From positions 1 through 50,836 of the forward strand of contig JBILUI010000002.1 in NCBI GenBank assembly GCA_044371145.1: 50,836 nucleotides of DNA. Direction: 5' to 3'. Position 1 is the first letter of the stretch. The number at the start of each line of letters is the position of its first letter. Below the pieces are notes generated by a model. It was not told the origin of the DNA. It saw nothing but the letters and a program-made list of their open reading frames with translations, and searched no databases. The translations under genes and the position numbers were made by a program. Shown here in pieces: positions 520 to 12,383 of this stretch. Source of the DNA: Chthoniobacterales bacterium (GTDB lineage Bacteria; Verrucomicrobiota; Verrucomicrobiia; Chthoniobacterales; JACTMZ01).

Positions 520-731
520 CCACAGCCGAGTCTGCGAGACAGCCGAAGGCAAATTTAAGAAGATGAATGAGGATAAAGTCCGAGCGGCTTGCAGCCGCGC
601 GGACTGAGGGGAATGCCGCGCACCGAGTGATTGCCTATGGGCTATCTACGGCTGCGCCTCCGGTTGCGATACGCGGCGGTTTGTCCGCAGAACTAAAAGC
701 AGAAGTGGGCGCGCGATGAGCGCGCTTTTTT
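515..731 (+). repeat. Boundary element copy A (structured repeat plus intrinsic terminator)
   Basis: Starts TTTAGCCACAGCCGAGTCTGCGAGACAGCC. Contains the hairpin GTCCGAGCGGCTTGCAGCCGCGCGGAC (578-604), then a long variable hairpin closed by GCCGCG/CGCGGC, then GGTTTGTCCGCAGAAC, then the terminator. Homologous to 2132-2307, 9432-9611 and 10342-10497. Confidence 0.85.
709..731 (+). terminator. Rho-independent terminator (GCGCGC-GATGA-GCGCGC followed by T6)
   Basis: Perfect 6-bp GC stem, 5-nt loop, T-run at 726-731. The 31-nt string GTGGGCGCGCGATGAGCGCGCTTTTTTATTT is repeated identically at 1296-1326 and 7921-7951. Confidence 0.8.
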
Positions 732-767
732 ATTTCATCGGGACGTGCTTATGTTGTCGGCGACCTT

Positions 768-968
768 ATGAGCGTTACGACCAGCAATGGCCCGGATTCA
801 GCGGACGCTATGGCTTCTGTTGTGCGAAAGCGCGAAGCGCGGGCGAGTGGTTCGGTCACTGCGGGTATGTCTGATGCGGAGTTCGAGGCTTGGTTGGTCG
901 CTCAAGGTGCGGTGCGGATGTCGGAGGAGCGTCATGCGGCTTTGCGGCCTGGTTTCTACGGAGTTTAA
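768..968 (+). CDS. Hypothetical small protein (66 aa)
   Basis: ORF only, with no recognisable motif. It lies between repeat A and the GT2 remnant and could be a remnant itself. Confidence 0.25.
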   Translation: MSVTTSNGPDSADAMASVVRKREARASGSVTAGMSDAEFEAWLVAQGAVRMSEERHAALRPGFYGV

Positions 969-1018
969 ACCTGATTGGAGATAGATCTGCTGCTTGGCAA
1001 GCAGGCTGTCAGGCTTGA

Positions 1019-1249
1019 GGGACGCCCGGACTGCGCGCACACTGGTCTTGGAAGCAGAAGCTGAAATACCGGCTGATGCAGACGCCGTTCATCGGGATCG
1101 TTTACTTTTTCGGGAGCTACGTGCTGATGGGTGGGTTCCGTGATGGGTTTACGGGATTGGCCTTTGCGATCCTGAAGATGTCTTACTTTACTCAGGTGTA
1201 TTGCAAGTTGAGAGAGGGGGAGCGAGCGGCTGAAAGCCGCGAGGGATGA
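1019..1249 (+). pseudogene. 3'-terminal remnant of a family-2 glycosyltransferase
   Basis: The frame is open only from 1019 (stop TGA at 1016), with an ATG at 1076. The translation ...KYRLMQTPFIGIVYFFGSYVLMGGFRDGFTGLAFAILKMSYFTQVYCKLRE matches the conserved C-terminal membrane-associated tail of GT2 enzymes (F..Y.L..GF.DG..G...A.L...Y....Y.KL.E). No catalytic domain lies upstream. Confidence 0.55.
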
Positions 1250-1298
1250 GCGCTGAGTGGAATCTTCTCGAACAGAAGGTCACAAAGGAAAGAAGTGG

Positions 1299-1321
1299 GC
1301 GCGCGATGAGCGCGCTTTTTT
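1299..1321 (+). terminator. Rho-independent terminator, identical copy 2
   Basis: GCGCGC-GATGA-GCGCGC plus T6. The 35 nt AGAAGTGGGCGCGCGATGAGCGCGCTTTTTTATTT are identical to 701-735. Confidence 0.8.
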
Positions 1322-1353
1322 ATTTTTGCGGAAAAGGATAGGTTGCAGGCTTT

Positions 1354-2115
1354 ATGTCGCCTGAACGCATTTTAGGGATTCCGTTTTTTACCGGTTCGGT
1401 GGAGGAGGCGGTGGCGGAGACTTGGCGTGGTGGGCTCGTGGTCGCGCCATCCGGACCGAATCTGGCCAATGAGCTGCGCAAGGTGCCGGATTACCGGCGC
1501 GCGGTGGAGAATGCCGATGTGGCTCTCACGGACAGCGCGGTGATGGTGGCGGTGTATCGCGCGGCGACCGGGCGATCGGTGCCGCGGCATTCGGGGTTGA
1601 AATTTCTCGAGGCGATGTTGGCGGAGCCGGCATTGCGGGAACCGGGCGCGGCGTTCTGGGTGATGCCGACGGAGGAGGAGGGGAACAAGATCGCCGCATG
1701 GTTGCGGACGCAGGGATTTCCGGTGGATGGGAGCAATACCTATGTGGCGCCATTCTATCGCGGGTATCCGATTGCGGATGAGGAGTTGTTGCGGCGTTTG
1801 CGGACGGCGAAGCCGAAGGTGGTTTTTTTGAATCTCGCGGGCGGTAAGCAGGAGGTGCTCGGGGCGTGGTTGCGCGAGCGGCTTGACCCGTGTCCGGGGA
1901 TCGTTTGCACGGGTGCGGCGGTGGCTTTTCTGGCGGGAACGCAGGCGAAGATTCCAGTGTGGGCGGATCGGAGCGGGCTCGGGTGGCTGATGCGGTGCAT
2001 TTATGAGCCGCGGAAGTTTATTCCGCGGTATTGGAGTGCGTTGCCTTTGGTTTGGATGGTGTGGAGCGGCGCGCGGCGCGCCGCGGACCAAGAGACTAAA
2101 AGACAAAGAGACTAA
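1354..2115 (+). CDS. WecB/TagA/CpsF-family (GT26) glycosyltransferase
   Basis: 253 aa. N-terminus ILGIPF...S.EEAV, then PSGPNLA, VALTDSA, KPKVVFLNLAGGKQEVLGAWLRERL and CTGAAVAFLAGTQAKIPVWADRSGLGWLMRCIYEPRKFIPRYW, typical of the TagA/WecG family. The last ~10 codons (DQETKRQRD) read into the octamer purine tract. Confidence 0.85.
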   Translation: MSPERILGIPFFTGSVEEAVAETWRGGLVVAPSGPNLANELRKVPDYRRAVENADVALTDSAVMVAVYRAATGRSVPRHSGLKFLEAMLAEPALREPGAAFWVMPTEEEGNKIAAWLRTQGFPVDGSNTYVAPFYRGYPIADEELLRRLRTAKPKVVFLNLAGGKQEVLGAWLRERLDPCPGIVCTGAAVAFLAGTQAKIPVWADRSGLGWLMRCIYEPRKFIPRYWSALPLVWMVWSGARRAADQETKRQRD

Positions 2116-2133
2116 GAGGCGGAGAGACGAGTT
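2086..2133 (+). repeat. Octamer-periodic purine tract (GACNAAGA x6)
   Basis: Reads gaccaaga|gactaaaa|gacaaaga|gactaaga|ggcggaga|gacgagtt. Sits immediately 5' of repeat element B. Confidence 0.8.
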
Positions 2134-2307
2134 TTAGCCACAGCCGAGTCTGCGAGACAGCCGAAGGCAAATTGAGGAAGATGGATGAGGATAAGGTCCG
2201 AGCGGCTTAGAGCCGATCGGACTGGTGGAATGCCAACCGCCGGGTGATTGCCCATGGGCTATCTACGGCCAGCTGGCCTCCGGTTCCGGCGTTCGGCGGT
2301 TTGTCCT
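2132..2307 (+). repeat. Boundary element copy B (degenerate, lacks terminator)
   Basis: Same 5' module as copy A (TTTTAGCCACAGCCGAGTCTGCGAGACAGCCGAAGGCAAAT). Hairpin GTCCGAGCGGCTTAGAGCCGATCGGAC, long variable hairpin, GGCGGTTTGTCC, then diverges with no GC hairpin or T-run. Confidence 0.8.
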
Positions 2308-2378
2308 AGGAGGTGGCGGATTTTACGGCTATGGGGCGAGCACGTGACAACAGGGCTGTTTGCGGCTAAGCTGATAAC

Positions 2379-2621
2379 ATGAAAGTAGAAATGGAAGTTC
2401 CCGATAGCGCTTTATCCGCGCTGCGGCGTGCACCAAGTGAGGTAGCTGGCAGGCTTCGTTTCATGGCTGCCGCCAAGCTCTATGAGGTGGGCGAATTAAG
2501 CCAAGAGCGCGCGGCGGAGTTGGCCGGGTTCTCTCGCCAGAAGTTCGTAACGATGCTCTCGGCGATCGGCGTTAGTCCGTTCCAAGGAGTCGAAGAGGAT
2601 CTCTTGGCATCAGCTCGATAA
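2379..2621 (+). CDS. UPF0175-family antitoxin-like protein
   Basis: 80 aa. AAAKLYEVGELSQERAAELAGFSRQKFVTMLSAIGVSPF is the characteristic UPF0175 helix-turn-helix core. A paralog lies at 5495-5752. Confidence 0.75.
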   Translation: MKVEMEVPDSALSALRRAPSEVAGRLRFMAAAKLYEVGELSQERAAELAGFSRQKFVTMLSAIGVSPFQGVEEDLLASAR

Positions 2622-2658
2622 GGCTCGTCGGTAGCCTGCAAGGTCGGAGAGCGGGTGG

Positions 2659-3426
2659 TTGACAGCTGATCCACGGAGCTGCATCGTTGAAGATGAAAGC
2701 TCGTTCCATGGTCACCATCGACAAATGCATCCAAAAGAAAGCCGCCGAGATGAGGGAAGCCCGCCTCAAGCAGCGTTGGATTTCTTACTCGGAAGCCTTG
2801 GCTCAGTGTCTCCGGGTCGAGGCGCGGGGAGACAGCGATTCAACGAAGAAGTCGCGGCGCTCCAACGTTGGGCGGCAAGCGGCGGCCGCTGCTTAAACGA
2901 GGACGGCCTGCGCGGGTTCAAGCCAGTTGCCTCGGGCGCAGAGCACGAAGTCTTTTTCGACGAGAGCGCACAGCGCGCGATAAAGGTTACGAAGAGTGGT
3001 CGCTTCGGTCACTCCCTGGAAGGAGAGGGACTCAGTGCAACGCCTGCAGCCTATCTCCAGCGTCTTGTTTTTCACAACGAGCTGCTCGGGGACAGCATTG
3101 AATTGGTCGGAGTATGGTCCGCGGAAGGAAGTGTGCGTATCATCTCATCGCAGCCTTGGGTTACCGAGGCCAAAGTGGACGTTGGTCTCACGCAAGATGA
3201 CATCACTGCATGGTTCGGCGACCTCGGCTTCAAACGGTTTTGTTGCGCGAAGGTGCCCGCCTATTTCAAAGCAGAGTCGGACGTGGTTGTTTTGGATGCC
3301 AATGTGAAGAATGTGCTTCGCGATACGAACGGCCGTCTTTTCCCGATTGACGTCGTGATCGGTGTGCCTGGATCAAAGGTGCGAGAGATCTTTGGACTTC
3401 CAGCCTCGCTGCATCCGGCTTCCTGA
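2659..3426 (+). CDS. Protein-kinase-like fold protein (atypical small kinase), N-terminus uncertain or possibly frameshifted
   Basis: Kinase-like signature in order: SGAEHEVFFDE (Gly-rich loop equivalent), AIKVTK (beta3 Lys), VVLDANVKNVL (D-x4-N catalytic loop), FPIDVV (metal-binding Asp). The track start at 2659 is TTG, with an ATG at 2725. Third-position GC looks better in the overlapping frame 2687-2896 up to about 2835. The 5' end may therefore be frameshifted. Confidence 0.55.
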   Translation: MTADPRSCIVEDESSFHGHHRQMHPKESRRDEGSPPQAALDFLLGSLGSVSPGRGAGRQRFNEEVAALQRWAASGGRCLNEDGLRGFKPVASGAEHEVFFDESAQRAIKVTKSGRFGHSLEGEGLSATPAAYLQRLVFHNELLGDSIELVGVWSAEGSVRIISSQPWVTEAKVDVGLTQDDITAWFGDLGFKRFCCAKVPAYFKAESDVVVLDANVKNVLRDTNGRLFPIDVVIGVPGSKVREIFGLPASLHPAS

Positions 3427-3439
3427 AGTGCCAAGGGAA

Positions 3440-3486
3440 GCGCGTGTAGCGCGCGGTGGCGGGTGTGAAAGTGACTGGTGAAAGGT
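3440..3486 (+). repeat. 47-nt cassette-end repeat, copy 1
   Basis: GCGCGTGTAGCGCGCGGTGGCGGGTGTGAAAGTGACTGGTGAAAGGT. It differs at 2 positions from 4170-4216 and starts with a GCGCG-N5-CGCGC hairpin. Confidence 0.85.
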
Positions 3487-3541
3487 GGGAAGGTAGGAAA
3501 GTGGGAAGGTATTTCGGTGCTTCGGTTGGTCGGTGGGGCGT
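3486..3541 (+). repeat. Octamer-periodic tract (T-N5-GG x7)
   Basis: Reads tgggaagg|taggaaag|tgggaagg|tatttcgg|tgcttcgg|ttggtcgg|tggggcgt, with T exactly every 8 nt. Followed by CTTGAAA CTTGAAA CCTGAAAAAA. Confidence 0.8.
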
Positions 3542-3644
3542 TGAGCGGGGAGGGATGAGGCTTGAAACTTGAAACCTGAAAAAAGAGGGCGCAAATTGGA
3601 GAACCGGTGCCCAGAAGACAAGGCTTTGCCCTTGAAGAGAAAAA

Positions 3645-3974
3645 ATGCCCACGAAAACGCGCAAAGTTAATAAAGCAAATCCCCTGACGGGGAGCAGTCT
3701 CGATGATTTTCTTCGAGACGAGGGGATTCTGGAGGAAGTGGAAGCTGCGGCGCTCAAGCGGGTGATGGCCGTTCTCGAAGACGTGGATGATCTGGCCGTC
3801 GTGGCGAAACGTCGCCGTGAGCCGACGATCGCGCATGAGGAAATCGTTGCGGCGCTGAAGGCGGCGTGGAACGCGGAGATCCCGTCTGAACAGCGGAGCT
3901 GGAAATCGGCCCAAAAGCAGCGGTTGGCGGATGAAATCCGTGATGCCGCAACAAAGAATGAGCGCAGACGTTAA
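3645..3974 (+). CDS. Antitoxin-like small protein (109 aa)
   Basis: The N-terminal SSLDDFLRDEGILEEVEAAALKRVMA motif is common in small TA-associated regulators. The middle part, EDVDDLAVVAKRRREPTIAHEEIVAALK, resembles RelB/Phd-type antitoxin tails. Overlaps the next ORF. Confidence 0.5.
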   Translation: MPTKTRKVNKANPLTGSSLDDFLRDEGILEEVEAAALKRVMAVLEDVDDLAVVAKRRREPTIAHEEIVAALKAAWNAEIPSEQRSWKSAQKQRLADEIRDAATKNERRR

Positions 3975-4218
3975 ATCCGAAATTCAGCTTTTGGACGTGG
4001 TGGCGTTGACCGAAGCGTTCGGGAGCCTTGCCAAGGGTTCACTGGGCACTGTGGTCGAAGTGTTGTCGGACGATGCTTTCGAAGTGGAATTCATCAATGA
4101 TGAGGGATACACGCTGGCGATCGAGACGCTCACGAGAGATTCTTTGCGCAAGGTGTGGGAGCGGGGGAGGCGCGTGAAGCGCGCGGTGGCGGGTGTGAAG
4201 GTGACTGGTGAAAGGTAA
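3931..4218 (+). CDS. DUF4926-like protein
   Basis: LLDVVALTEAFGSLAKGSLGTVVEVLSDDAFEVEFINDEGYTLAIETLTRDSLRKV matches the DUF4926 pattern from memory. Alternative starts lie at 3943 and 3958. The C-terminal RGRRVKRAVAGVKVTGER is a translation of the 47-nt repeat, so the native 3' end appears replaced. Confidence 0.65.
   Translation: MKSVMPQQRMSADVKSEIQLLDVVALTEAFGSLAKGSLGTVVEVLSDDAFEVEFINDEGYTLAIETLTRDSLRKVWERGRRVKRAVAGVKVTGER
4170..4216 (+). repeat. 47-nt cassette-end repeat, copy 2
   Basis: GCGCGTGAAGCGCGCGGTGGCGGGTGTGAAGGTGACTGGTGAAAGGT, 45/47 identical to 3440-3486. Confidence 0.85.
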
Positions 4219-4279
4219 CGACGGAGAAACGGAGGATAAGTGGGAAGTGATGAATGCAGAATGCGAAGTGGCGGAGGCG
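4217..4279 (+). repeat. Purine-rich GGA-laden tract
   Basis: aacgacggagaaacggaggataagtgggaagtgatgaatgcagaatgcgaagtggcggaggcg. The core AAGGTAACGACGGAGAAACGGAGGAT is homologous to 5262-5290. Confidence 0.7.
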
Positions 4280-4392
4280 TCCCGGTGAAGTGGGCTTCGC
4301 ACTTCACGGGCCAAGGAGACAGGGGTCAGGTGACGTGACGGGGAATTTTAACTTGAACTTGGTTGCGTCGGGAATCTTGCTAATTTGAGACT

Positions 4393-4707
4393 ATGACTAC
4401 GGCAGCTCTGCCAAAACATATCTCTGTCGATAACTTCGGTGTGGCCTGGATTCAGGGAACACGGGTGAAAGTGATCGAGGTCGCGCTGGATCATATCGCT
4501 CACGGTTGGAGCGCGGACGAAATCGCCCGCCAGCACCCTGAACTGACGTTGGGCCAGATTCATTCCGCTCTTTCTTGCTATTACGACAACAAGACCGAGT
4601 TCGAGGAGATCATCGCCGAGGATTATGAATCGGCCAAAGCGCTAGGCACGGCGACCGGGGAAACTCCACTGCGTCTCAGGTTGCGATCCAAGGGACTGTT
4701 GAGTTGA
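4393..4707 (+). CDS. DUF433-family antitoxin-like protein
   Basis: VAWIQGTRVKVIEVALDHIAHGWSADEIARQHPELTLGQIHSALSCYYDN is the DUF433 core. Its stop overlaps the start of the next gene (TTGA). Confidence 0.8.
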   Translation: MTTAALPKHISVDNFGVAWIQGTRVKVIEVALDHIAHGWSADEIARQHPELTLGQIHSALSCYYDNKTEFEEIIAEDYESAKALGTATGETPLRLRLRSKGLLS

Positions 4708-5054
4708 GTCTGCGGCTCTACATGGACGTCCATGTCCCGGCCGCGGTCACGGCGGCGCTGCGGCAGAAAGGTGTGGATGTGTTACGGGCCCAAGACGATG
4801 GCACCGGAACTCTCGACGATGGTCCGCTGCTGGAAAGGTCGACGTCCTTGGGACGCGTCATGTTTTCGCAGGATCGCGACATGCTGGCCGAGGCAAGCTT
4901 GCGGCAGCGCCAAGGCGTTGCCTTCGCCGGGGTGATCTACGGGCACCAACTGGAGGTGACGGTCGGCCAATGCATTCGTGATTTGGAGATCATCGCAAAA
5001 GCAGGCGAGCAGGAGGACTTGGCGGGGCGCGTGGAGTTTTTACCTCTACGGTGA
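4704..5054 (+). CDS. DUF5615-family PIN-like putative toxin
   Basis: LYMDVHVPAAVTAALRQKGVDVLRA ... GRVMFSQDRDM matches the Mut7-C/DUF5615 PIN-like pattern. This is the canonical partner of DUF433. The start is TTG at 4704, overlapping the upstream stop. Confidence 0.75.
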   Translation: MSLRLYMDVHVPAAVTAALRQKGVDVLRAQDDGTGTLDDGPLLERSTSLGRVMFSQDRDMLAEASLRQRQGVAFAGVIYGHQLEVTVGQCIRDLEIIAKAGEQEDLAGRVEFLPLR

Positions 5055-5076
5055 GGCAATAAGGAGTGACGAGGCT

Positions 5077-5253
5077 GTGGCAACTGAGGGCGCCACTGTC
5101 CCCAGTGCGCGGGTAGACGAGACGACGGGCGAGCCGTTTTTCACGCCTGATACGGTGGACAGGTTGCAGGAGATCTTGGAGAAGCAGATGGCAGAGGGCG
5201 TGGGGCAAGGAGCATGGGGCAGACGAGAAGTGATGCACCGGAGTAAAAGGTAA
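5077..5253 (+). CDS. Hypothetical ORF, probably a gene fragment
   Basis: GTG at 5077 lies 10 nt after AAGGAG. The translation ...TTGEPFFTPDTVDRLQEILEKQ... is not recognised. Ends inside a purine tract. Confidence 0.2.
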   Translation: MATEGATVPSARVDETTGEPFFTPDTVDRLQEILEKQMAEGVGQGAWGRREVMHRSKR

Positions 5254-5302
5254 AAAGTGCGAAGGTGACGGCGGAGAAGCGGGAGGATGCGGAGTGGCAA
5301 GA
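5241..5302 (+). repeat. Purine-rich GGA-laden tract
   Basis: gagtaaaaggtaaaaagtgcgaaggtgacggcggagaagcgggaggatgcggagtggcaagaa. Homologous core to 4212-4250 and to 7880-7905. Confidence 0.7.
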
Positions 5303-5405
5303 ATTCGCCTACCGCTCTTTCGCCGCAGGTTATGACGACGATGAGCCGGATTATTCGCTCGAGGATATCAAGGATCCGCCTCGGCCGGATGAGCCTCCGG
5401 CGTGA
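5265..5405 (+). pseudogene. C-terminal fragment of an antitoxin (EP-x-YS...DIK tail type)
   Basis: A frame not in the track (<60 aa) gives ...EDAEWQEFAYRSFAAGYDDDEPDYSLEDIKDPPRPDEPPA*. The W..F......A.G..DDEPDYSLEDIK ending is typical of small antitoxins. Compare AAYGPDEPDYS at 8164-8376. There is no proper N-terminus, because the upstream part is the purine tract. Confidence 0.4.
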
Positions 5406-5494
5406 CAAGGGAGGGATGCCAGAGGTCAAAAGCCAGTGGTCCGGGTTGACGGCGTGGGGTTGCGGTCGGGCGGACTTCGGTTTAATTAACGGTT

Positions 5495-5752
5495 ATGCCA
5501 GTGGCCGAGTCCATAAGCGTCGATTGCCCTCCAGAGGTGCTGCTTGAGTTGCACGTCAGTCCGGGCGAGATGGCGGATGTGCTGAAAGAGAAGGCGGCTC
5601 TGGCTCTCTTCAGTGAGGGAAAGATTTCTTCGGGGTTGGCGGCGCGATGGGTGGGTCAGCCGAGGGCGGCTTTTTTGATGGCGGCCATGGCACAGGGGGC
5701 GCGGCTCCTCGATCAGGGCGATGTGGACTACCGTCGCGAATCGTCGCTGTGA
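5495..5752 (+). CDS. UPF0175-family antitoxin-like protein
   Basis: KEKAALALFSEGKISSGLAARWVGQPRAAFLMAAMAQG is the UPF0175 core. Its stop overlaps the GTG of the next gene (GTGA at 5749-5752). Confidence 0.8.
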   Translation: MPVAESISVDCPPEVLLELHVSPGEMADVLKEKAALALFSEGKISSGLAARWVGQPRAAFLMAAMAQGARLLDQGDVDYRRESSL

Positions 5753-6228
5753 CGATCTACTCGAATACCACGCCGCTACTGGCTTTCTCGGCTATCGGTC
5801 GTCTCGACCTGATGAACAGGGTGCACGGCGAGATCTGTATCGTGCCGAGCGTGGTCGCGGAGTGCGGGGCGGGAGGGGTTGTCGAGGTTCCGGATTTGAC
5901 AAAACTTCCGTGGATTCGGATCGAGCGGGAGCCAGCGCAAGACGAGTCGAGGTTCTTTATGTTGGACGCCGGAGAGCGCGATACTTTGTCGGCGGCGCTG
6001 CGTGATGGCGCGGACTTGGTGCTGATAGACGAGCGGTTGGGAAGGAATCTTGCTGAGTTCTACGGTCTGCGTGTCGCTGGAACACTCGGCACTCTGAAGA
6101 AGGCGAAGGAGTTAGGGTTCATTCCGGAGTTTTTACCACTCGTGCGGGAGTTGCAGGGCGCGGGGTTCTGGTATCACGAGGACTTGGTGCGGCGCTTGGC
6201 AGCGGATGTGGGTGAGTCTCCTTTCTAG
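5749..6228 (+). CDS. DUF3368-family PIN-like putative toxin
   Basis: IYSNTTPLLAFSAIGRLDLM..., DAGERDTLSAALRDGADLVLIDERLGRNLA..., GLRVAGTLGTLKKAKELGFI. This is the classical DUF3368 partner of UPF0175. The start is taken as GTG 5749, since the longer track ORF from 5647 overlaps the antitoxin. Confidence 0.8.
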   Translation: MTIYSNTTPLLAFSAIGRLDLMNRVHGEICIVPSVVAECGAGGVVEVPDLTKLPWIRIEREPAQDESRFFMLDAGERDTLSAALRDGADLVLIDERLGRNLAEFYGLRVAGTLGTLKKAKELGFIPEFLPLVRELQGAGFWYHEDLVRRLAADVGESPF

Positions 6229-6237
6229 GAAGACACG

Positions 6238-6549
6238 TTGATAATGACGAAAGGCGAGTGCAGTCCTGAAACTGGGGACCCGCTTGGGCTGTTGTTGCAG
6301 CCGCTGTGGCGGGAGTTTGATGTGAAGCGGGCCTGGCTTTTTGGCGGGCGGGCGCGGGGTGAGGCTGACGCGGGCAGCGATTGGGATTTTCTGGTGGAGT
6401 TTGCGTCGAGGCCGGGATTCGCGAATTTCATGGGACTGAAATGCGCGTTGGAGGATGCGCTCGGGTCGAAGGTTGACGTGCTTTCGCTCAGTGCGGTTAA
6501 GCGTGCGTTTTTGGCGCGGATTGAGAAGGAGTTGGTCGATGTCTATTGA
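6238..6549 (+). CDS. MNT-type nucleotidyltransferase (MntA-like antitoxin of HEPN/MNT modules)
   Basis: WLFGGRARGEADAGSDWDFLVEF is the G[SG]-x9-D-x-D Pol-beta nucleotidyltransferase motif. KVDVLS follows. TTG at 6238, or ATG at 6244. Confidence 0.8.
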   Translation: MIMTKGECSPETGDPLGLLLQPLWREFDVKRAWLFGGRARGEADAGSDWDFLVEFASRPGFANFMGLKCALEDALGSKVDVLSLSAVKRAFLARIEKELVDVY

Positions 6550-6631
6550 GCGGGATCGATGTATATTCACCATGGATTACACAGATTCCACGGATTGTCT
6601 TTGTCCCTACAGGAAGTCTCCGAATGATTAA
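6539..6631 (+). pseudogene. Possible truncated HEPN (DUF86) toxin start, interrupted by CACGGATT-type repeat
   Basis: ATG at 6539 overlaps the MNT gene end by 11 nt, which is typical MNT-HEPN coupling, and reads MSIERDR. The sequence then becomes ccatggattacacagattccacggattgtctttgtcc. That string resembles the 5' arm of boundary element D (10349-10382). A stop follows after 30 codons. Confidence 0.25.
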
Positions 6632-6682
6632 GTGGCTCATCCGGACGTTGTTTCGGGCGGTGGGGCAGTGCAGGATTCAGTC

Positions 6683-6913
6683 ATGGGCACTTCATCACAG
6701 CAATCCGGGTCCAACGAAGCCGGTGAGTGGGTCTTCAGTGGAAAGCTGCGGAGAATGCCGGCACCTCGGACCGTGGATCTTCTCGAGGAGTATGGAAGTT
6801 GGAGTGGCTTTGTTGCAGCAGTCCACAAGTCGATCGGCGGCCGTCGGGGGAGTGGCGTGCTGAGGTTTGCGAAGTCGGACAGCAACGCATGCGGCAACCG
6901 GAAGAGCGCGTAG
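6683..6913 (+). CDS. Hypothetical protein (76 aa)
   Basis: ATG 9 nt after AGGA, with moderate third-position GC. The translation ...EWVFSGKLRRMPAPRTVDLLEEYGSWSGFVAAVHKS... is not recognised. Confidence 0.3.
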   Translation: MGTSSQQSGSNEAGEWVFSGKLRRMPAPRTVDLLEEYGSWSGFVAAVHKSIGGRRGSGVLRFAKSDSNACGNRKSA

Positions 6914-6975
6914 GGCTGGAGACAACGGGTGGCGCAAGACTTGCCGGTTTGACGAGGGTGAACTATGTCTCGGCT

Positions 6976-7254
6976 ATGGCCGCAGCGCGCATCACGAGAG
7001 ATCCCAGAGTGATGGGGGGCAAGCCTTGCATCCGCGGTATGCGCATTACGACGGGGACCATTTCTGGATTGGTGGCGTCCGGCCATTCCGGGGATGAGGT
7101 CTTGAGGATGTATCCGTTTTTGGAGGAGGAAGACATTCGCGCCGCGCTGGCGGAGGCAGATGCGGACATTGCGGCGGGGCGGTTGCTCTCACCTGAGGAG
7201 GTGCGTCGCAGCTTGAATTTGGGCGGGAGCGGGGCCAATGAGAACAAAACCTAA
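6976..7254 (+). CDS. DUF433-family protein with atypical C-terminal tail
   Basis: ITRDPRVMGGKPCIRGMRITTGTISGLVASGHSGDEVLRMYPFLEEEDIRAALA is a canonical DUF433. The tail EADADIAAGRLLSPEEVRRSL resembles the C-terminus of RHH-type antitoxins. Confidence 0.7.
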   Translation: MAAARITRDPRVMGGKPCIRGMRITTGTISGLVASGHSGDEVLRMYPFLEEEDIRAALAEADADIAAGRLLSPEEVRRSLNLGGSGANENKT

Positions 7255-7414
7255 GGAGATTGAGGAGTTGATCCGGCGTCAGCCGCGCCTGACGTCGGAG
7301 CGGTTTTGGCAACAACTGGAGAGGGCGAAGACGCTATCGCCCAGTGTGGAGTCGCTGAAGACGGTCCCTCTTGAGGAGGAGGCTCCTTTAAAAAAGATTC
7401 CGCCTTTGGATTAA
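7238..7414 (+). CDS. Hypothetical small ORF (58 aa) overlapping the DUF433 gene end
   Basis: Not in the track (<60 aa). Reads MRTKPKEIEELIRRQPRLTSERFWQQLERAKTLSPSVESLKTVPLEEEAPLKKIPPLD. It occupies the position where a DUF5615 toxin would be expected. Confidence 0.25.
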   Translation: MRTKPKEIEELIRRQPRLTSERFWQQLERAKTLSPSVESLKTVPLEEEAPLKKIPPLD

Positions 7415-7423
7415 CTAAGAGCT

Positions 7424-7792
7424 ATGCAAACGATTCCGGAGGTTACTGGCGCTCGCCCGACAAGTGGACGGCGTGTCTGGCTGAGCTTTGCGGATGGGCA
7501 GCACGGCGAAGTCGATCTTTCGCGGTATCTGGGATATGGGGCGGTGTTTGCGCCGCTGGCGGACGAGGAATTCTTTCGCCAGCTGCGCGTCGAGGCCGGA
7601 ACAATTGCCTGGCCGAACGGCGCAGACATCGCACCGGAACGATTATACGAATTGCTCGTCGGGCCCGGAGTGGAGGTCGGGGATGAAGCGGTTTTGGCGG
7701 CAGGATCGGTGGTCACGCGAAATGTTCCGTCGAATGCTGTTGTGGCGGGGAATCCGGCGAGCGAGCGCGGGGTGCGGTGGCGGGGCGCCTGA
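7424..7792 (+). CDS. Chimeric ORF: DUF2442-like domain fused in frame to a copy of the acetyltransferase C-terminus
   Basis: Residues 1-78 (RRVWLSFADGQHGEVDLSRYL...FFRQLRVEAGTIAWPNGADIAPERLYELL) look like a near-complete DUF2442. From nt 7658 the DNA is 120/123 identical (by eye) to 379-501 of the acetyltransferase gene (VGPGVEVGDEAVLAAGSVVTRNVP.NAVVAGNPASERGVRW). Confidence 0.7.
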   Translation: MQTIPEVTGARPTSGRRVWLSFADGQHGEVDLSRYLGYGAVFAPLADEEFFRQLRVEAGTIAWPNGADIAPERLYELLVGPGVEVGDEAVLAAGSVVTRNVPSNAVVAGNPASERGVRWRGA

Positions 7793-7800
7793 GAGAGGCG

Positions 7801-7920
7801 GACTAAAAGACCAAGAGACGAAAGACGAAGAGACAAAAAGACGTGGAAAGGTGGGAAAGTTTGAAGGTGTAAGGGTTTGAAGGCGGACGGAGAGGCGGTG
7901 AGGCGAAAGACTAAGAGACG
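7801..7920 (+). repeat. Octamer-periodic purine tract (about 15 units)
   Basis: Reads gactaaaa|gaccaaga|gacgaaa|gacgaaga|gacaaaaa|gacgtgga|aaggtggg|aaagtttg|aaggtgta|agggtttg|aaggcgga|cggagagg|cggtgagg|cgaaagac|taagagac. Runs directly into terminator copy 3. Confidence 0.8.
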
Positions 7921-7924
7921 GTGG

Positions 7925-7947
7925 GCGCGCGATGAGCGCGCTTTTTT
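7925..7947 (+). terminator. Rho-independent terminator, identical copy 3
   Basis: GCGCGC-GATGA-GCGCGC plus T6. Confidence 0.8.
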
Positions 7948-8163
7948 ATTTGTGGGCTAAGGCTTAGGATTTTGGGGAAAGCGTGGAGCTTGGAGCATAG
8001 AGTCGGCGAAACGGCCAAAGGCGGGCCGCCGGGTGGAGCTGGCGCCACGTTCTCCCCGTGCGCCGAGGGCGCTGGACAGGACGGCGGGGAAGGTGGGCAG
8101 AGACGGCTGAGGGGCGGATGGGCTTGCGAACCTGAGCGGAAGCGAGTTTATTGGATCCGGACT

Positions 8164-8376
8164 ATGCACTTAACAGCCCGAGTGGAGGACGCCACGCATC
8201 TCGTATTGAGCGAGCCATTGCCCATGCCGCGTGGCAGCATTGTGGCGGTGGATGTCCGCGAGTCTGCCTTGGTGGCTGAGCACGCAGATTGGATTGCCCC
8301 CTCGGGCGCTCTGCTTGATGCGGCTTACGGGCCCGATGAACCGGACTATTCCGAGTGCGGCGAACGTTTGTCCTGA
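8164..8376 (+). CDS. Antitoxin-like small protein (70 aa), putative MazE-position partner
   Basis: MHLTARVEDATHLVLSEPLPMPRGSIVAVDV...LLDAAYGPDEPDYSECGERLS. The EPDYS tail is typical of small antitoxins. It ends 6 nt before the MazF-like gene. The longer track ORF from 7972 is low-complexity and unlikely. Confidence 0.5.
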   Translation: MHLTARVEDATHLVLSEPLPMPRGSIVAVDVRESALVAEHADWIAPSGALLDAAYGPDEPDYSECGERLS

Positions 8377-8382
8377 GCCTTT

Positions 8383-8730
8383 GTGGCTAAAGTCTTCCCA
8401 GGTGATGTCGTAGTCGCGCCGCTGGCTCAAGCGGATGGCGGGGCGAAACCGAGGCCTGTGCTGCTGCTGCGCGAATTGCCGGGTTTCGGCGACTACTTGG
8501 CGTGTGGAATCAGCACGCAAGTGCATCAGGCGATCAAGGGATTTGATTTGATCCTCAGTCCAGGTTCTTCCGAGTTCGTTTCATCCGGCTTGCACACGGA
8601 ATCGGTAGTTCGTTTGGGTTATGTCGGCGTGGTGCCAGTGAGGAAAATGACAAGGCGCTTGGGGCGTCTTTCTCCTAGCGCCTTGGCTGGCCTGCAGAGG
8701 CGATTGGCCGACTGCATTCTGTCCGGATAG
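8383..8730 (+). CDS. MazF/PemK-family toxin-like protein
   Basis: GDVVVAPLAQADGGAKPRPVLLLRE...DYLACGISTQ...ESVVRLGYVGVVPVRKMTRRLGRLSPSALAGLQRRL follows the PemK/MazF pattern: G-D-v-v, KxRPalvl, iTs, and a C-terminal G.ls...l. GTG start. Confidence 0.7.
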   Translation: MAKVFPGDVVVAPLAQADGGAKPRPVLLLRELPGFGDYLACGISTQVHQAIKGFDLILSPGSSEFVSSGLHTESVVRLGYVGVVPVRKMTRRLGRLSPSALAGLQRRLADCILSG

Positions 8731-8745
8731 TGGCGGGCCTTTTCT

Positions 8746-9409
8746 ATGTCCCCTGAACGCATTTTAGGGATTCCGTTTTTCACTAGCTCGGTGGAGGAGG
8801 CGGTGGCGGAGACTTGGCGCGGGGGGCTTGTCGTTGCGCCATCGGGGCCGAACTTGGCCAATGAGCTGCGCACGGTGCCGGATTACCGGCACGCGGTGGA
8901 GAATGCGGATGTGGCGCTCACGGACAGCGCGGGTGGAAGCGGTGCGGGCGCGGCAGGCCAAGCGTTTCGAGGGTGTGTTGCGGCCGGCGTTGAATGCACG
9001 GATGTCGCCGAAGCTGATGCGGGAGCACTGCGCGATCTCGGAGACCTGCCACAACTTGATGAAGCATGCGCTCGATGATTTGCATCTGAGCGCGCGGGCG
9101 CATGACCGGATTCTCAAGGTGGCGCGAACCATCGCGGACCTGGCCGAGGCGGATTCGATCGGGGAAGACCATTTGCTCGAGGCGTGGTTGCGCGAGCGGC
9201 TTGATCCGTGTCCGGGTATTGTTTGCACGGGGGCGGCGGTGGCTTTTCTCGCGGGGACGCAGGCGAAGATTCCGGTGTGGGCGGATCGAAGCGGGCTCGG
9301 GTGGCTCATGCGCTGCATTTATGAGCCGAAGAAATTTATCCCGCGGTATTGGAGCGCGTTGCCTTTGGTTTGGATGGTGTGGAGCGGCGCGCGCGCCGCG
9401 AGGGCGTAA
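8746..9409 (+). pseudogene. Three-part chimera: wecB-like 5' part | comM 3' fragment | wecB-like 3' part
   Basis: 8746-8932 aligns with 1354-1540 (about 169/187 nt). 8933-9184 aligns with comM 11815-12066 (about 220/252 nt, equal length). 9185-~9400 aligns with 1867-~2085 (about 93%). The left junction is +1 out of frame. The right junction is in frame. Confidence 0.85.
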
Positions 9410-9431
9410 ACCTGAGGTCGGAGAACAAAAC

Positions 9432-9611
9432 TTTAGCCACGGACGAAAGAAGATTAGCGCAGCCGAGTCTGCGAGACAGCCGGAGGCAAATGAGTCCGAG
9501 CGGCTTGCAGCCGCACGGACTGAAGGGAATGCCTCGAGCCAAGTGACCTCGGCGCGAGGCGGTTTGTCCGCAGAACGAGGAGGCAGAAGGCGCGCGAGGG
9601 CGCGCTTTTTT
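9432..9611 (+). repeat. Boundary element copy C (with terminator 9590-9611)
   Basis: TTTAGCCACGG..., GAGTCTGCGAGACAGCC, hairpin GTCCGAGCGGCTTGCAGCCGCACGGAC, short variable hairpin GCCTCG...CGAGGC, GGTTTGTCCGCAGAAC, then GCGCGC-GAGG-GCGCGC plus T6. Confidence 0.85.
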
Positions 9612-9612
9612 G

Positions 9613-10020
9613 CTACCCAGGTGAGGGCTGGTCTTGGGCTTCAAGCCATTGGCGTGGAGTCACGATAGGAATCCCTTCATGTTGGCTTACAACCAGAAGG
9701 TCTTGGTCGCCCGTAGTAATGAAATCTACTTTGCCGGCGATTGCCGTGGCGAGCACGGCGACATCATCGGGATCACGGCAGAGATTGGCATCAAGCGGCG
9801 CAGGTTCCACCAACTCTGCGCGAGCTTCGTAAACACTTAGAAACGGAATGTCTTTTGCTTTCACAACGAACTTCTCCTCGAGCTTCTCGCGGAGCTCATT
9901 CAGAAGTGTTCTTGATGTGATCAGGGAATGGTTTTCGAGACGCCGCCAGACGAGATCCCGGCAGAGGCCGTCGGCTACCACAGCAGCGATGAGGACGTTG
10001 GTATCGAGGACAAGCCTCAC
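9613..10020 (-). CDS. vapC: PIN-domain toxin (VapC-like)
   Basis: MRLVLDTNVLIAAV..., ...DPDDVAVLATAIAGKVDFITTGDQDLL carries the PIN acidic residues. It overlaps the upstream RHH gene by 4 nt. Confidence 0.85.
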   Translation of the reverse strand: MRLVLDTNVLIAAVVADGLCRDLVWRRLENHSLITSRTLLNELREKLEEKFVVKAKDIPFLSVYEARAELVEPAPLDANLCRDPDDVAVLATAIAGKVDFITTGDQDLLVVSQHEGIPIVTPRQWLEAQDQPSPG

Positions 10021-10235
10021 GAAACAACGCGGAAGACGTCTTCGTCGGTGTAAATGCCACGGGCGCGCGCGGCGGGCACCAGGACCTCGCGGGAATCGTC
10101 GATGGCTTTTTGCCAGAGCTTGGACCGAATGGCGTCACGAACGAACTCGCTGGCATTCCTGTGCTCGGAAGCCGCAGCCCGCTCCATCTCGCGACGGAGT
10201 TTGGCCGGCAGACTGATGGTGAGTGTGCTGCGCAT
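10017..10235 (-). CDS. vapB: Ribbon-helix-helix (CopG/VapB-like) antitoxin
   Basis: MRSTLTISLPAKLRREMERAAASEHRNASEFVRDAIRSKL is an RHH motif. The start is taken at the internal Met (10235) rather than the track start at 10271. Confidence 0.75.
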   Translation of the reverse strand: MRSTLTISLPAKLRREMERAAASEHRNASEFVRDAIRSKLWQKAIDDSREVLVPAARARGIYTDEDVFRVVS

Positions 10236-10267
10236 GCTGTAAGAAGATATCTTACAGCAGCGAATTG

Positions 10268-10341
10268 TCAAATGAGAGACCGAAAGGCTAGGAGCCGGAG
10301 TCCGGTGAGGCGGGCGTAGACCAACAAGACGAAGAGGAGCG
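10268..10341 (+). repeat. Purine-rich tract preceding element D
   Basis: gagagaccgaaaggctaggagccggagtccggtgaggcgggcgtagaccaacaagacgaagaggagcg. It contains GACCAACAAGACGAAGAGG, related to 7809-7835. It is plus-oriented although the adjacent vapBC is on the minus strand. Confidence 0.65.
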
Positions 10342-10497
10342 TTTTAGCCACGGATAAACGCGGATTTTCACGGATTTGTCCAAGCGGCTTGCAGCCGCAC
10401 GGACTGAGAAAAATGCCTCGCACCGTGTGACCCCGATGCGAGGCGGTTTGTCCGCAGAACGAGGAGGCAGAAGGCGCGCGGTGAGCGCGCCTTTTTT
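10342..10497 (+). repeat. Boundary element copy D (with terminator 10473-10497)
   Basis: TTTTAGCCACGGATAAACGCGGATTTTCACGGATTT (three CACGGATT-like decamers replace the GTCTGCGAGACA arm). Then GTCCAAGCGGCTTGCAGCCGCACGGAC, hairpin GCCTCGCA...TGCGAGGC, GGTTTGTCCGCAGAAC, and GGCGCGC-GGTGA-GCGCGCC plus T6. Confidence 0.85.
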
Positions 10498-10569
10498 GTT
10501 TTTGGGAAAGTTTGGACTTGAGAAGGGGTTCTGTAATGGAGTCTATCAGCCGTTTCTCCTGAACATCTC

Positions 10570-12105
10570 ATGCTGACAAAGGTTTACTCTGCCGCTCTGC
10601 ACGGGGCCGATGCCCGGGAGGTGGAGATCGAGGTGAATGAAGGGTCTGGAGACCCGAAGGTGGTTATTGTCGGACTGCCCGATGCGGCGGTGAAGGAGAG
10701 CAAGGATCGCGTGACCACGGCGATGGCCAATAGTGGTTACCGTTGGCCTCGCGGTCGGACGACGATCAATTTGGCGCCGGCGGACATTAAAAAAGAGGGA
10801 CCAAGCTTCGACCTGCCAATAGCTATCGGGATGCTGGCCATCGCCCATGGCCGCAATCTTCCGCGACTCGGCGATTGCGCCATCACCGGGGAGTTGGCTC
10901 TGACGGGGGCGATCCGTTCGGTTAAAGGCGTGCTTCCCATCGCGATCGAAGCGCGTCGGCAAGGGAAGAAGGCGCTTCTTGTGCCGGCGGAGAATGCCGC
11001 CGAGGCGTCGGTGGTTCAGGGGCTTTCGGTTTTCGGTGTACGCAACCTGCGCGAGTGCTTCGAGTTTCTCGACGGGCAGAAGACGGTGGAGCGGACGCAA
11101 TCCGATCTCCAGACGGTGTTTCGCGATAATCAGCGCGACGAATTGGATTTCGCCGATGTGAAGGGCCAAGCGTCGGTGAAGCGCGCTTTCGAGGTGGCAG
11201 TCGCCGGCGGACACAATCTTCTCGTGATCGGCGCACCCGGTGGGGGCAAGAGCATGCTGGCCAAACGGATTCCCGGAGTCATGCCGCCGATGACGCTGGA
11301 GGAAGCGATTGAGACAACCAAGATCCACAGCGTGTGCGGGCTACTCGACGGGAAGCACAACTTTGTCGCCATCCGGCCGTTCCGCGCGCCGCATCACACG
11401 ATTTCCGATGTGGGTCTGCTCGGCGGGTCAACCAACCCGACACCGGGCGAGGTGAGCCTGGCGCACCACGGCGTGCTTTTTCTCGACGAGTTGCCGGAGT
11501 TCAAGCGCTCCACACTCGAGGTGCTGCGTCAGCCGCTGGAGGACGGGAGGGTGACAATTTCGCGGGCGGCGGGGAGTCTCACTTTTCCGGCGGATATCAT
11601 GCTGGTGGCGGCGATGAATCCGTGCCCGTGCGGATTCTACGGGCACCCGAAGCGTGAATGCCGGTGCTCGCCGGGACAGGTGGAACGGTATCGTCAGAGG
11701 GTGTCTGGTCCGCTCCTCGACCGGATCGACATCCACGTGGAGGCGCCGCCGGTGGAATATGCCGAATTGACCTCGACGGCGGAGGAGGAAAGTTCGGCTG
11801 CCGTGCGCGCGCGAGTCGAAGCAGTGCGGGCACGTCAGGCCAAGCGGTTCGAGGGCGCGCTACGGCCGGCGCTGAATGCGCGAATGACGCCAAAGCTGAT
11901 GCGGGAGCACTGCGCGATTTCCGAGACTTGCCACAATTTGATGAAGCACGCACTCGATGACTTGCACCTCAGCGCCCGGGCGCATGACCGGATTCTCAAG
12001 GTTGCGCGCACCATCGCCGACCTGGCCGAGGCTGATTCGATCGGGGAGGACCATCTTCTTGAGGCGATCCAATACCGCACTTTGGACCGCTCGCTCTGGA
12101 TGTAG
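10570..12105 (+). CDS. comM: YifB/ComM-family Mg-chelatase-like AAA+ ATPase
   Basis: 511 aa. Lon-like N-domain ([14 protein letters not shown]), Walker [19 protein letters not shown], zinc-ribbon [16 protein letters not shown]-terminal [18 protein letters not shown]...IQYR. Confidence 0.95.
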
Positions 12106-12383
12106 AACCTATCCCATAACCATACGGAGTGGCGCAGGGTCATGGCGGGCAGTCGGCCAGGCGCGAGGACGGAGCGCGATACTCCTGTGCATCGTGACCG
12201 ACGAAGCACCGCCGTCCGTTGCCCCGCCAAGGTCCTGCCAAAGAGGGTTGCGGCGCCTTTCGCCTGCCGCGGCGTTGCTGCGCTCGGGACAGTATCGCAG
12301 AGGATACAGCCACTTCGCTTACTCCTTGCAGCAGACCAAAATCATCCGCAACGCCACCCCGTCAGTTTTTGGCATAGGTTCTA
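12103..12383. mobile_element. Possible MITE-like element (19-nt imperfect terminal inverted repeats, TA flanks)
   Basis: TAGAACCTATCCCATAACC at 12103-12121 versus the reverse complement of 12365-12383, TAGAACCTATGCCAAAAAC. The first 10 are perfect and 16/19 match overall. The comM stop TAG is part of the left end. Statistical support is weak. Confidence 0.2.

Follow-up and report, generated by a model that had tools for sequence, protein, structure and literature searches.

In a 50,836-nt stretch of DNA from a Chthoniobacterales bacterium (contig JBILUI010000002.1, positions 1–50,836; hereafter the window), four related, hairpin-bearing non-coding repeats, which we name A, B, C and D, lie within 10.5 kb; copy C is the feature under study. 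The observations agree with a modular palindromic repeat of low copy number, of the kind represented by bacterial interspersed mosaic elements (BIMEs), BOX elements and Rickettsia palindromic elements (RPEs); the kind is known, the family undescribed. We tentatively favour, with a probability of roughly 45%, a locus-restricted mosaic repeat that is co-transcribed in 3' untranslated regions (3'UTRs) or intercistronic spacers, where its hairpins would act as a barrier at the RNA level and the repeat would supply portable homology by which toxin-antitoxin cassettes are shuffled.

All four copies are on the plus strand, at 515–733 (A), 2132–2314 (B), 9432–9611 (C) and 10342–10497 (D). In a pattern count, the start motif TTTAGCCACRG is found at 515, 2133, 9432 and 10343 (0.98 matches expected by chance), the core of a first hairpin (H1), AGCGGCTTNNAGCCGNNCGGACTG, at 583, 2201, 9499 and 10383 (0.00 expected), and the exact string GGCGGTTTGTCC at 675, 2295, 9558 and 10442. 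Aligned, the four copies share one order of parts: a purine tract, TTTAGCCAC, a variable 5' part, H1, a G-rich linker ending in AATG, a second hairpin (H2) and GGTTTGTCC, followed in A, C and D, and not in B, by a GC hairpin with a T-run. H1 is the hairpin GTCCGAGCGGC-TTGCA-GCCGNNCGGAC with an 11-bp stem. H2 is variable: a loop insert of 36–39 nt is present in A and B and missing from C and D, and its base helix differs in a compensatory manner (GCCGCG/CGCGGC versus GCCTCG/CGAGGC). An earlier, sequence-only reading of the window had described these copies, their order of parts, the long or short H2 interior, the terminator missing from B and the compensatory change; the counts and the alignment agree with all of this, and the compensatory pattern extends strongly once further copies are added. 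It had also proposed that an upstream arm pairs with a distal segment in A, B and C, which stands for A and C; copy B carries TGTCCTAGGAGG, not the distal TGTCCGCAGAAC, and within the window only A and C can therefore form this closing stem. Taken over window and relatives, the full unit consists of purine-rich words, TTTAGCCAC, an interchangeable 5' module (the GTCTGCGAGACAGCCGRAGGCAAAT arm, a GGTCGC-N4-GCGACC hairpin or CRCGGAT words), H1, the G-rich linker, H2 (variable stem, loop usually TGAC, optional 36-nt insert) and GGTTTGTCC; a shared GC hairpin with a T-run ends many copies, not all.

The family extends beyond the window. A strict pattern, H1 plus AATGCC, had no match among 185,579 species genomes, and in the JGI metagenomes it yielded two real contigs and one chance match (L003; related loci carry such numbers throughout). 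With the looser pattern, H1 by itself, 22 loci were obtained; the real ones among them were L024, L027 and L034 alone, all from Verrucomicrobiota metagenome-assembled genomes (MAGs), so that exact H1 occurs in just three MAGs in the scan of the species genomes. Further copies were recovered by translating the usually open frame of the element and using it as a protein profile, which led to 19 clusters of unannotated open reading frames (ORFs) of 48–115 amino acids overlying element copies (contigs L035–L053). Gene callers evidently output 'hypothetical proteins' from the non-coding element (clusters P0121–P0139), one of them labelled in its source as an outer-membrane iron receptor. A covariance model built on a hand-checked alignment of 12 copies returned 27 matches, 24 of them distinct, from the window, the three MAGs and metagenome contigs; it scored copy A with 76 bits (578–694), B with 70 bits (2196–2314), C with 97.5 bits and D with 90 bits. 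One metagenomic copy (L001, Ga0209668_10200642, minus strand 230–340) connects two truncated, unrelated ORFs that are in different frames, one amidohydrolase-like and the other PlsC-like (acyltransferase). The probable cause is a chimeric assembly of the metagenome across the repeat, and L001 was therefore left out of the context analysis.

Searches of the whole window against Rfam 15 gave no match at gathering scores, and at E ≤ 10 over positions 1–12000 only chance matches of the terminator type (Trp_leader, 19 bits with a cut-off of 41; isrK, 17 bits with a cut-off of 50), in agreement with the earlier statement that the element belongs to no named RNA family. No similarity to the element was found in IMG/VR, among PLSDB plasmids or among GenBank phages, an exact-protein look-up of the window's WecG returned no record, and a literature search found no description of the element. 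Judged by sequence comparison, the family is unnamed and has no relative among described families. Several candidate identities were rejected along the way: a small protein gene, as no frame is open across copies and linker indels of 1–2 nt shift it; a known ribozyme or a SINE-like (short interspersed) element derived from tRNA, tmRNA, 6S, RNase P or SRP RNA, for which there was no Rfam match even at E ≤ 10; a CRISPR-like repeat-spacer unit, as the variable part is always palindromic; a Xer/dif site, as the element is unlike the AT-rich dif core; and a minimal element of the IS200/IS605 type, as H1 is unlike H2 and H2 varies between copies.

The pairing of H2 is maintained across the family. 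In the 12-copy alignment, 11 of its 13 pairs carry double changes, and none of 500 shuffles reaches the observed covariation score. With 24 copies, 88.9% of cells pair, as against 26–40% in controls with slid partners, and double changes again affect 11 of the 13 H2 pairs. The sequence of H1, by contrast, is almost invariant while H2 covaries: no H1 pair is changed on both sides among the 12 copies, the 24-copy set adds three such pairs, and its loop differs by copy (TTGCA, TTAGA, TTTTA, TTACA). Between copy C and its counterpart in L034, compensated changes convert a G-C pair to U-A and a C-G pair to U-A, and H1 is 100% conserved within surroundings of about 75% identity. The predicted fold of copy C comprises the closing stem, H1, H2 and the terminator at −81 kcal/mol (z = −4.0), in line with the sequence-only reading; for copy A, z is −2.3. 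The closing stem was rejected as a feature of the family, as complementarity between 5' arm and tail stands out in only three of 17 copies tested (A, C and L035:1116). Moreover, GCGGAC in the 3' half of H1 can alternatively pair with GTCCGC in the tail.

Stable folds of this sort (z = −4.0 and −2.3 for C and A), a covarying H2 and a Rho-independent terminator 3' of A, C and D are also what a family of independent small-RNA genes with their own promoters and terminators would show, as the sequence-only reading had suggested. Copy D, which is not downstream of any plus-strand gene and would therefore need its own promoter for transcription, fits this proposal as well. However, no promoter-like site was seen 5' of any copy (a weak point, since the sigma-70 consensus may not fit this phylum), the terminator is missing from B and from many related copies, the 5' half varies in content, the plus strand shows no excess of G·U pairs over A·C mismatches, and the element starts at or inside the stop codon of the upstream gene. 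In addition, near relatives lack it at orthologous sites, and one copy lies in frame within a gene. What remains of the suggestion is a genuine repeat with conserved and covarying hairpins; an independent small-RNA gene we consider very improbable.

The individual copies illustrate how the unit is fitted between genes. Copy A directly follows the gene of a hexapeptide acetyltransferase (ORF 22–519), whose stop codon TAG (517–519) is the TAG of TTTAGCC. It comprises the 5' arm GTCTGCGAGACA (530–541), H1 (578–604), the G-rich linker (605–614), H2 (615–677) with the nested 36-nt loop insert (631–666), the tail (678–694) and a terminator hairpin (707–727) with a T-run. Copy B is preceded by an intact gene for a WecG/TagA glycosyltransferase (ORF 1354–2115) and a tract of purine-rich words (2080–2131); its H1 (2196–2222) has the loop TTAGA, its H2 (2232–2297) is of the long-loop form, and its tail (2298–2314) diverges after GTCC. 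It has no terminator, and a UPF0175 antitoxin-like gene begins at 2379. Copy C sits 3' of a chimeric WecG'/ComM' ORF (8828–9409) and is convergent with a PIN-like ORF on the minus strand (9613–10020). Its parts are the start TTTAGCCACGG (9432–9442), the 5' arm (9467–9478), H1 (9494–9520), the linker (9521–9530), H2 (9531–9560), the tail (9561–9577), the terminator (9590–9605) and T6 (9606–9611); its positional orthologue is L034 5577–5495. Copy D lies 70 nt 5' of comM/yifB (ORF 10570–12105) and starts with TTTAGCCACGG and, instead of the 5' arm, three CRCGGAT words with a 10-nt period (10343–10377 together). They are followed by H1 (10378–10404, with one A·C mismatch), the linker (10405–10414), H2 (10415–10444), the tail (10445–10461) and the terminator (10469–10497). 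C and D form a direct repeat, 88% identical from H1 onward, and enclose a minus-strand pair of PIN-like ORFs (9613–10020 and 10017–10271), which we read as VapC/VapB-like by size and layout only.

Comparison with related loci reveals that modules of the element are gained and lost, even from one positional orthologue to the other. In L009–L011, which have the same gene order and a ComM 88% identical to that of the window, only purine words and the terminator stand at the place of copy A, and an unrelated spacer at that of D; in L012 (ComM 93% identical), a different word module lies between the same flanks as D. Copy B and its positional orthologue L043:8705 share the same stem, but the former has the long and the latter the short loop, with CRCGGAT words instead of the 5' arm. 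Likewise, L024 corresponds to copy A without the loop insert, L043:736 consists of H2 and tail only, L051 carries an inverted 5' module, and H1 was deleted via CGGA microhomology in the lineage of L044–L050 and L043:5084. The homology between copies begins exactly at the 5' edge of H1 both in C versus D and in B versus L043:8705, and in B-type copies, which are linked three times to a UPF0175 gene (window, L043, L051), it stops just after GGTTTGTCC.

The element can also lie in frame within a protein-coding gene. In L027, a minus-strand GT4 glycosyltransferase ORF of 634 amino acids (3315–5219) reads without a stop through a copy at 3939–3857 and through other word inserts, and Pfam Glycos_transf_1 is matched only from profile position 74, at residue 439. 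The orthologue in L036 carries the same in-frame insert with a different peptide; three H2 pairs are compensated between L027 and L036. In the L043 orthologue, an unrelated insert of low complexity takes its place. In-frame palindromic insertion of this RPE-like sort was thus found in relatives, not in the four window copies.

The spacers around the copies are built of short purine-rich words in varying order, among them GACYAARAGAC, GGAAAGTGGGAAGGT, GTGACGAGTGACGGGTGACGAG and CRCGGATWW, the last with a period of 10–11 nt. Tracts of such words lie at 2080–2131, 3435–3518, 4165–4216 and 7801–7920 in the window and, in relatives, at 1460–1660 of L010, 1–160 of L012 and 7500–7860 of L043. The same words occur in frame in the L027 GT4 gene, for example as DQKTKRQKDQETDG.

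In each context examined, the copies belong to one type of locus, which contains a VanZ-like membrane protein of 135 amino acids, the acetyltransferase, WecG, GT4 and Wzy-like genes, interleaved with toxin-antitoxin genes. This is a cell-envelope polysaccharide and toxin-antitoxin locus of uncultured freshwater Chthoniobacterales. Relatives in the Opitutales had been presumed before, but the best relatives of ComM, 86–93% identical, are named Chthoniobacterales in their source; those at 86–87% identity have another gene order and no element. In the window, positions 2379–10271 hold a run of small genes of the toxin-antitoxin type (UPF0175, a polyvalent-protein kinase, DUF4926, DUF433 with DUF5615, DUF3368, a nucleotidyltransferase, DUF2442, MazF and the minus-strand ORF pair), and, the polysaccharide genes and comM aside, the remainder consists of housekeeping genes without integrase or transposase. 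The other 40 kb of the window contain no H1 or H2, CRCGGAT words, GCCGRAGGCAAA, GACYAARAGAC or shared terminator. Plus-strand GC skew is 0.17–0.29 in the polysaccharide/toxin-antitoxin region (window 1–10000) and about 0.04 in the housekeeping part, and both coding and non-coding sequence of that region are strongly G-rich on the sense strand.

Within these loci, copies are always co-oriented with the genes and lie directly 3' of a core gene and 5' of a cassette or of the next core gene. L043 holds five copies in 11.6 kb, some of them intercistronic and without a terminator. In L035, the copy between the VanZ-like gene and the acetyltransferase is purely intercistronic, about 40 nt from the next start codon and without a terminator; B and many related copies likewise have none and lie about 40–100 nt 5' of the next start codon. 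Upstream ORFs may end inside the element, as does the acetyltransferase of the window, and the Wzy-like ORF of L027 reads into the 5' words. A further regularity is a potential mini-ORF, in which the G-rich linker resembles a Shine-Dalgarno (SD) sequence, the ATG is followed by four codons that make up the 5' arm of H2, and a TGA lies in the loop (605–630, 2223–2247, 9521–9546 and 10405–10430 in the window). The spacing of ATG, 12 nt and TGA is kept in 18 of the 24 distinct copies despite differing codons; the peptides differ (MPRAK, MPRTE, MPTAG, MQPAR and others), and only start, length and stop are kept. The SD-like run ends just 1–4 nt 5' of the ATG.

These regularities raise the question whether the polysaccharide operon has a cis-acting regulatory RNA of its own. 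It would be either a processive antitermination element in the manner of EAR or put, reloaded 5' of each terminator-bearing cassette, or an attenuator built on the SD-like linker, the ATG, the four codons and the TGA. Its exclusive occurrence in one polysaccharide locus, the strict co-orientation, the 18 mini-ORFs, the alternative pairing of GCGGAC with the tail, and the position of A, C and D 10–25 nt 5' of a strong intrinsic terminator within a co-directional run of genes all point this way, and an invariant H1 beside a covarying H2 is the classic pattern of a protein-recognized RNA. Yet close relatives have the same operon and terminators without the element, H1 is deleted in one widespread lineage, many copies have no downstream terminator, the SD-like run is very close to the ATG, and the plus strand shows no bias of G·U over A·C. 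Furthermore, no Rfam model matches, hence it is no curated antitermination family. We regard a regulatory RNA of this kind as unlikely.

At the DNA level, the copies and duplicated 3' ends of genes bracket inserted cassettes. A 3' segment of the acetyltransferase gene (379–501) is duplicated at 7658–7780, pieces of WecG at 8745–8932 and 9174–9393, and a C-terminal piece of comM at 8927–9184; all three sets of duplicated gene ends sit at junctions. The ORF at 8828–9409 is chimeric because WecG and comM 3' pieces are duplicated there: an Mg_chelatase_C fragment, which repeats the 3' end of comM (87% identity with 11809–12066), is fused to a WecG C-terminus. Such orphan gene 3' ends mark past recombination events. 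By eye, the ORF at 1076–1249 also looks like an orphan glycosyltransferase 3' end followed by words and a terminator, and had no match in Pfam.

The terminator is shared more widely than the hairpins. The identical hairpin GGGCGCGCGATGAGCGCGC occurs at 707–727, 1297–1317 and 7923–7943, with variants at 9590–9605 and 10469–10495, and it is reused after unrelated genes, also in L009, L012, L034, L035, L037 and L043. At 1297–1323 (plus strand), hairpin and T-run stand alone, without H1 and H2, 35 nt 5' of the WecG start. At 7801–7949 (plus strand), a tract of purine words (GACTAAAAGACCAAGAGAC..., GGAAAGGTGGGAAAG...) leads to the solo terminator hairpin at 7923–7943; the segment sits 3' of the duplicated acetyltransferase end and is laid out like the spacers of A–D minus H1 and H2. 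In L043, a DUF433 toxin-antitoxin cassette has the shared terminator on either side, and its junction is therefore outside H1 and H2. The shared terminator may be the real module of cassette ends.

These observations bear on the second proposal of the sequence-only reading, a structure-recognized recombination site. Such a site, either attC-like or a 10-7-10 palindromic core site at H1, would allow a site-specific recombinase to insert and excise toxin-antitoxin cassettes. Direct-repeat copies indeed bracket the gene blocks A–B, B–C and C–D (the last being the PIN-like ORF pair) and the array, like a chromosomal integron, abounds in toxin-antitoxin cassettes of one orientation. H1 forms an 11-5-11 palindrome whose spacer is conserved, the bottom strand gives a slightly better fold of H2, and homology starts exactly at the 5' edge of H1 and ends just past GGTTTGTCC in B-type copies. 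The element had, however, been placed at every cassette junction, and this does not hold: from 2315 to 9493, across at least five gene-block junctions and most cassette junctions of the window, the covariance model has no match. Cassette junctions in L043 follow the shared terminator and are not within H1/H2, the H1 loop differs between copies, and copies in L035 and L037 lie between core genes without a cassette. The arm of the GT.. type is 5' and that of the ..GAAC type 3', which is the reverse of R'' followed by R' in attC. Neither the 40 ORFs of the window nor the called genes of L035–L053 contain a recombinase domain, and no integrase gene was seen in window or related loci. Breakpoints of homology at module edges, between copies and between genomes, are thus what survives of the proposal; a site-specific recombination site as such appears quite improbable.

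A purely selfish, non-autonomous mobile element, similar to a miniature inverted-repeat transposable element (MITE) or RPE, mobilized in trans by a transposase encoded elsewhere and without benefit to the host, is likewise rather unlikely in our estimate. Its presence or absence varies at orthologous sites, it was inserted in frame into the GT4 gene as RPEs are in Rickettsia, upstream ORFs end within it, and template switching can keep palindrome arms matched without selection. Moreover, the region also harbours a classical MITE, bounded by terminal inverted repeats of 32 nt, and elements of this sort are thus active here. Against this, no terminal inverted repeat is common to all copies, arm/tail complementarity being confined to the three copies named above; no target-site duplication was seen, and no flank is duplicated in the aligned flanks. 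The family also has a single orientation, a single locus type and very few copies, and what is exchanged are modules, at internal boundaries, not the unit as a whole. The MITE-like element itself (12103–12383; terminal inverted repeats TAGAACCTATCCCA...) is located directly 3' of the comM stop. A copy in L034 (4715–4436), 87.6% identical, has another context, after a minus-strand ORF pair and with no comM.

According to the mosaic-repeat reading that we prefer, the unit would be transcribed together with the gene before it, as part of a 3'UTR or of intercistronic RNA. Its stable hairpins would form a barrier to 3' exonucleases or to processing and insulate the mRNA of the core gene from downstream sequence. 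In the DNA, the conserved modules and the shared terminator would provide homology anchors by which cassettes and gene ends are shuffled, through unequal crossing-over or homology-facilitated illegitimate recombination. Shuffling of this kind would explain both the copies that flank cassettes and the orphan gene ends.

Several observations weigh against this reading. The copy number is far below that of classical REP (repetitive extragenic palindromic), BIME, BOX or RPE families, no dispersed copies were seen, and the copies show neither a consistent terminal inverted repeat nor a target-site duplication, nor was a transposase found. The restriction to one locus is itself based on an exact-pattern scan and a single 50-kb window, with genome fragments as relatives. 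Across 24 copies, H2 has 15 G·U pairs versus 19 A·C mismatches, and in 18 of them the minus-strand hairpins are at least as stable as those of the plus strand; the minus strand of copy C likewise folds equally well (z = −5.3). Pairing is maintained, be it as RNA or as DNA, and with the G·U excess missing and the minus strand folding equally well or better, the strand data give no sign of selection at the RNA level. A strand-specific wobble signature was rejected for either strand, as a hint of the minus strand in the 12-copy set gave way to no bias in the 24-copy set. Lastly, the strict co-orientation and the 100% conservation of H1 between C and L034 suggest a function more specific than a generic barrier.

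Such a function is kept alive by the co-orientation, the exclusive link to the polysaccharide locus, the conservation of H1 and the mini-ORF of 18 among 24 copies; its possible forms include an RNA for antitermination, an RNA of the attenuation type and the site of a recombinase encoded at an unlinked position. The most far-reaching version, which we consider improbable, is the recognition module of a new cassette system. There, toxin-antitoxin cassettes with a common terminator would be captured directly downstream of core polysaccharide genes, and the invariant H1 together with H2, of which only the structure is kept, would be either the site of an unlinked recombinase or a cis-acting RNA that restores read-through or translation via the mini-ORF of SD, ATG, four codons and TGA.

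Work on mosaic palindromic repeats has mostly concerned Proteobacteria, Firmicutes and Rickettsia. If our reading is true, such repeats extend to the Verrucomicrobiota in an unusual form, with a very low copy number, confinement to one hypervariable surface-polysaccharide locus and tight interleaving with toxin-antitoxin cassettes. The locus would then also offer a concrete model of how flexible islands are rebuilt, with shared non-coding modules as recombination anchors. The GT4 copies provide a natural case of a nucleic-acid hairpin kept by compensatory change within a protein-coding gene. On the practical side, the covariance model would remove spurious small proteins (19 clusters) from annotations and mark locus boundaries in MAGs.

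Among known systems, the attC sites of integrons resemble the element in being structured repeats of about 60–140 nt with conserved ends and a self-complementary variable centre, placed among co-oriented, toxin-antitoxin-rich cassettes. Their R'' core (RYYYAAC) lies 5' and R' (GTTRRRY) 3', paired at the base of the fold. Here, the order is reversed: the base stem runs from 5' GTCTGCGAGACA to 3' TGTCCGCAGAAC and is absent from most copies. There is also no integrase or attI, most cassette junctions have no element, and copies occur between ordinary biosynthetic genes and inside a gene as well. A bottom-strand check found a recurrent central mismatch in H2 (pair 47–64 of A2), and no conserved pattern of bulged G/T was identified.

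The EAR (eps-associated RNA, or epsC) motif of Bacillales eps operons and the put RNA of phage HK022 are cis-acting two-hairpin RNAs in long operons, EAR being specific to exopolysaccharide operons. The present element likewise has two hairpins and lies inside long operons or just 5' of terminators, but there is no Rfam similarity, several copies occur per locus, and near relatives dispense with it. Pneumococcal BOX elements, composed of boxA, boxB and boxC, are intergenic, with separable modules, predicted stable folds and no transposase of their own. The element shares the separable modules in varying combination and number, the stable predicted fold and the lack of an own transposase; BOX, however, is dispersed in more than 100 copies, is not tied to one operon and has no sequence similarity to it. 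RPEs are palindromic, about 100–150 nt long, and can sit in frame in protein genes, where they are translated as an extra loop (partly PMC3733652). The in-frame copy in the L027/L036 GT4 gene is their counterpart, with the differences that RPEs are dispersed over the genome and without sequence similarity to the element, while here one gene is known to hold an in-frame copy and the other copies are in spacers of the same locus.

The last comparison is with the REPs and BIMEs of enterobacteria and pseudomonads. REPs occur in tens to thousands of copies genome-wide, as opposed to four here, all within 10.5 kb, the other 40 kb of the window being free of them; the GTAG/CGTC tag by which they are defined (PMC3733652) is missing beside H1 and H2, and no gene for a REP-associated tyrosine transposase (RAYT) was seen in the genome fragments covered. 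The present unit is also longer, has a single orientation and combines two different hairpins with word modules. REPs are credited with mRNA stabilization and termination, and intragenic units are known (PMC3733652). What the element has in common with REPs and BIMEs is its mosaic of palindromes and short motifs in transcribed extragenic space and its stable hairpins: H1 and H2, with interchangeable 5' modules, are found at the 3' ends of genes or between cistrons.

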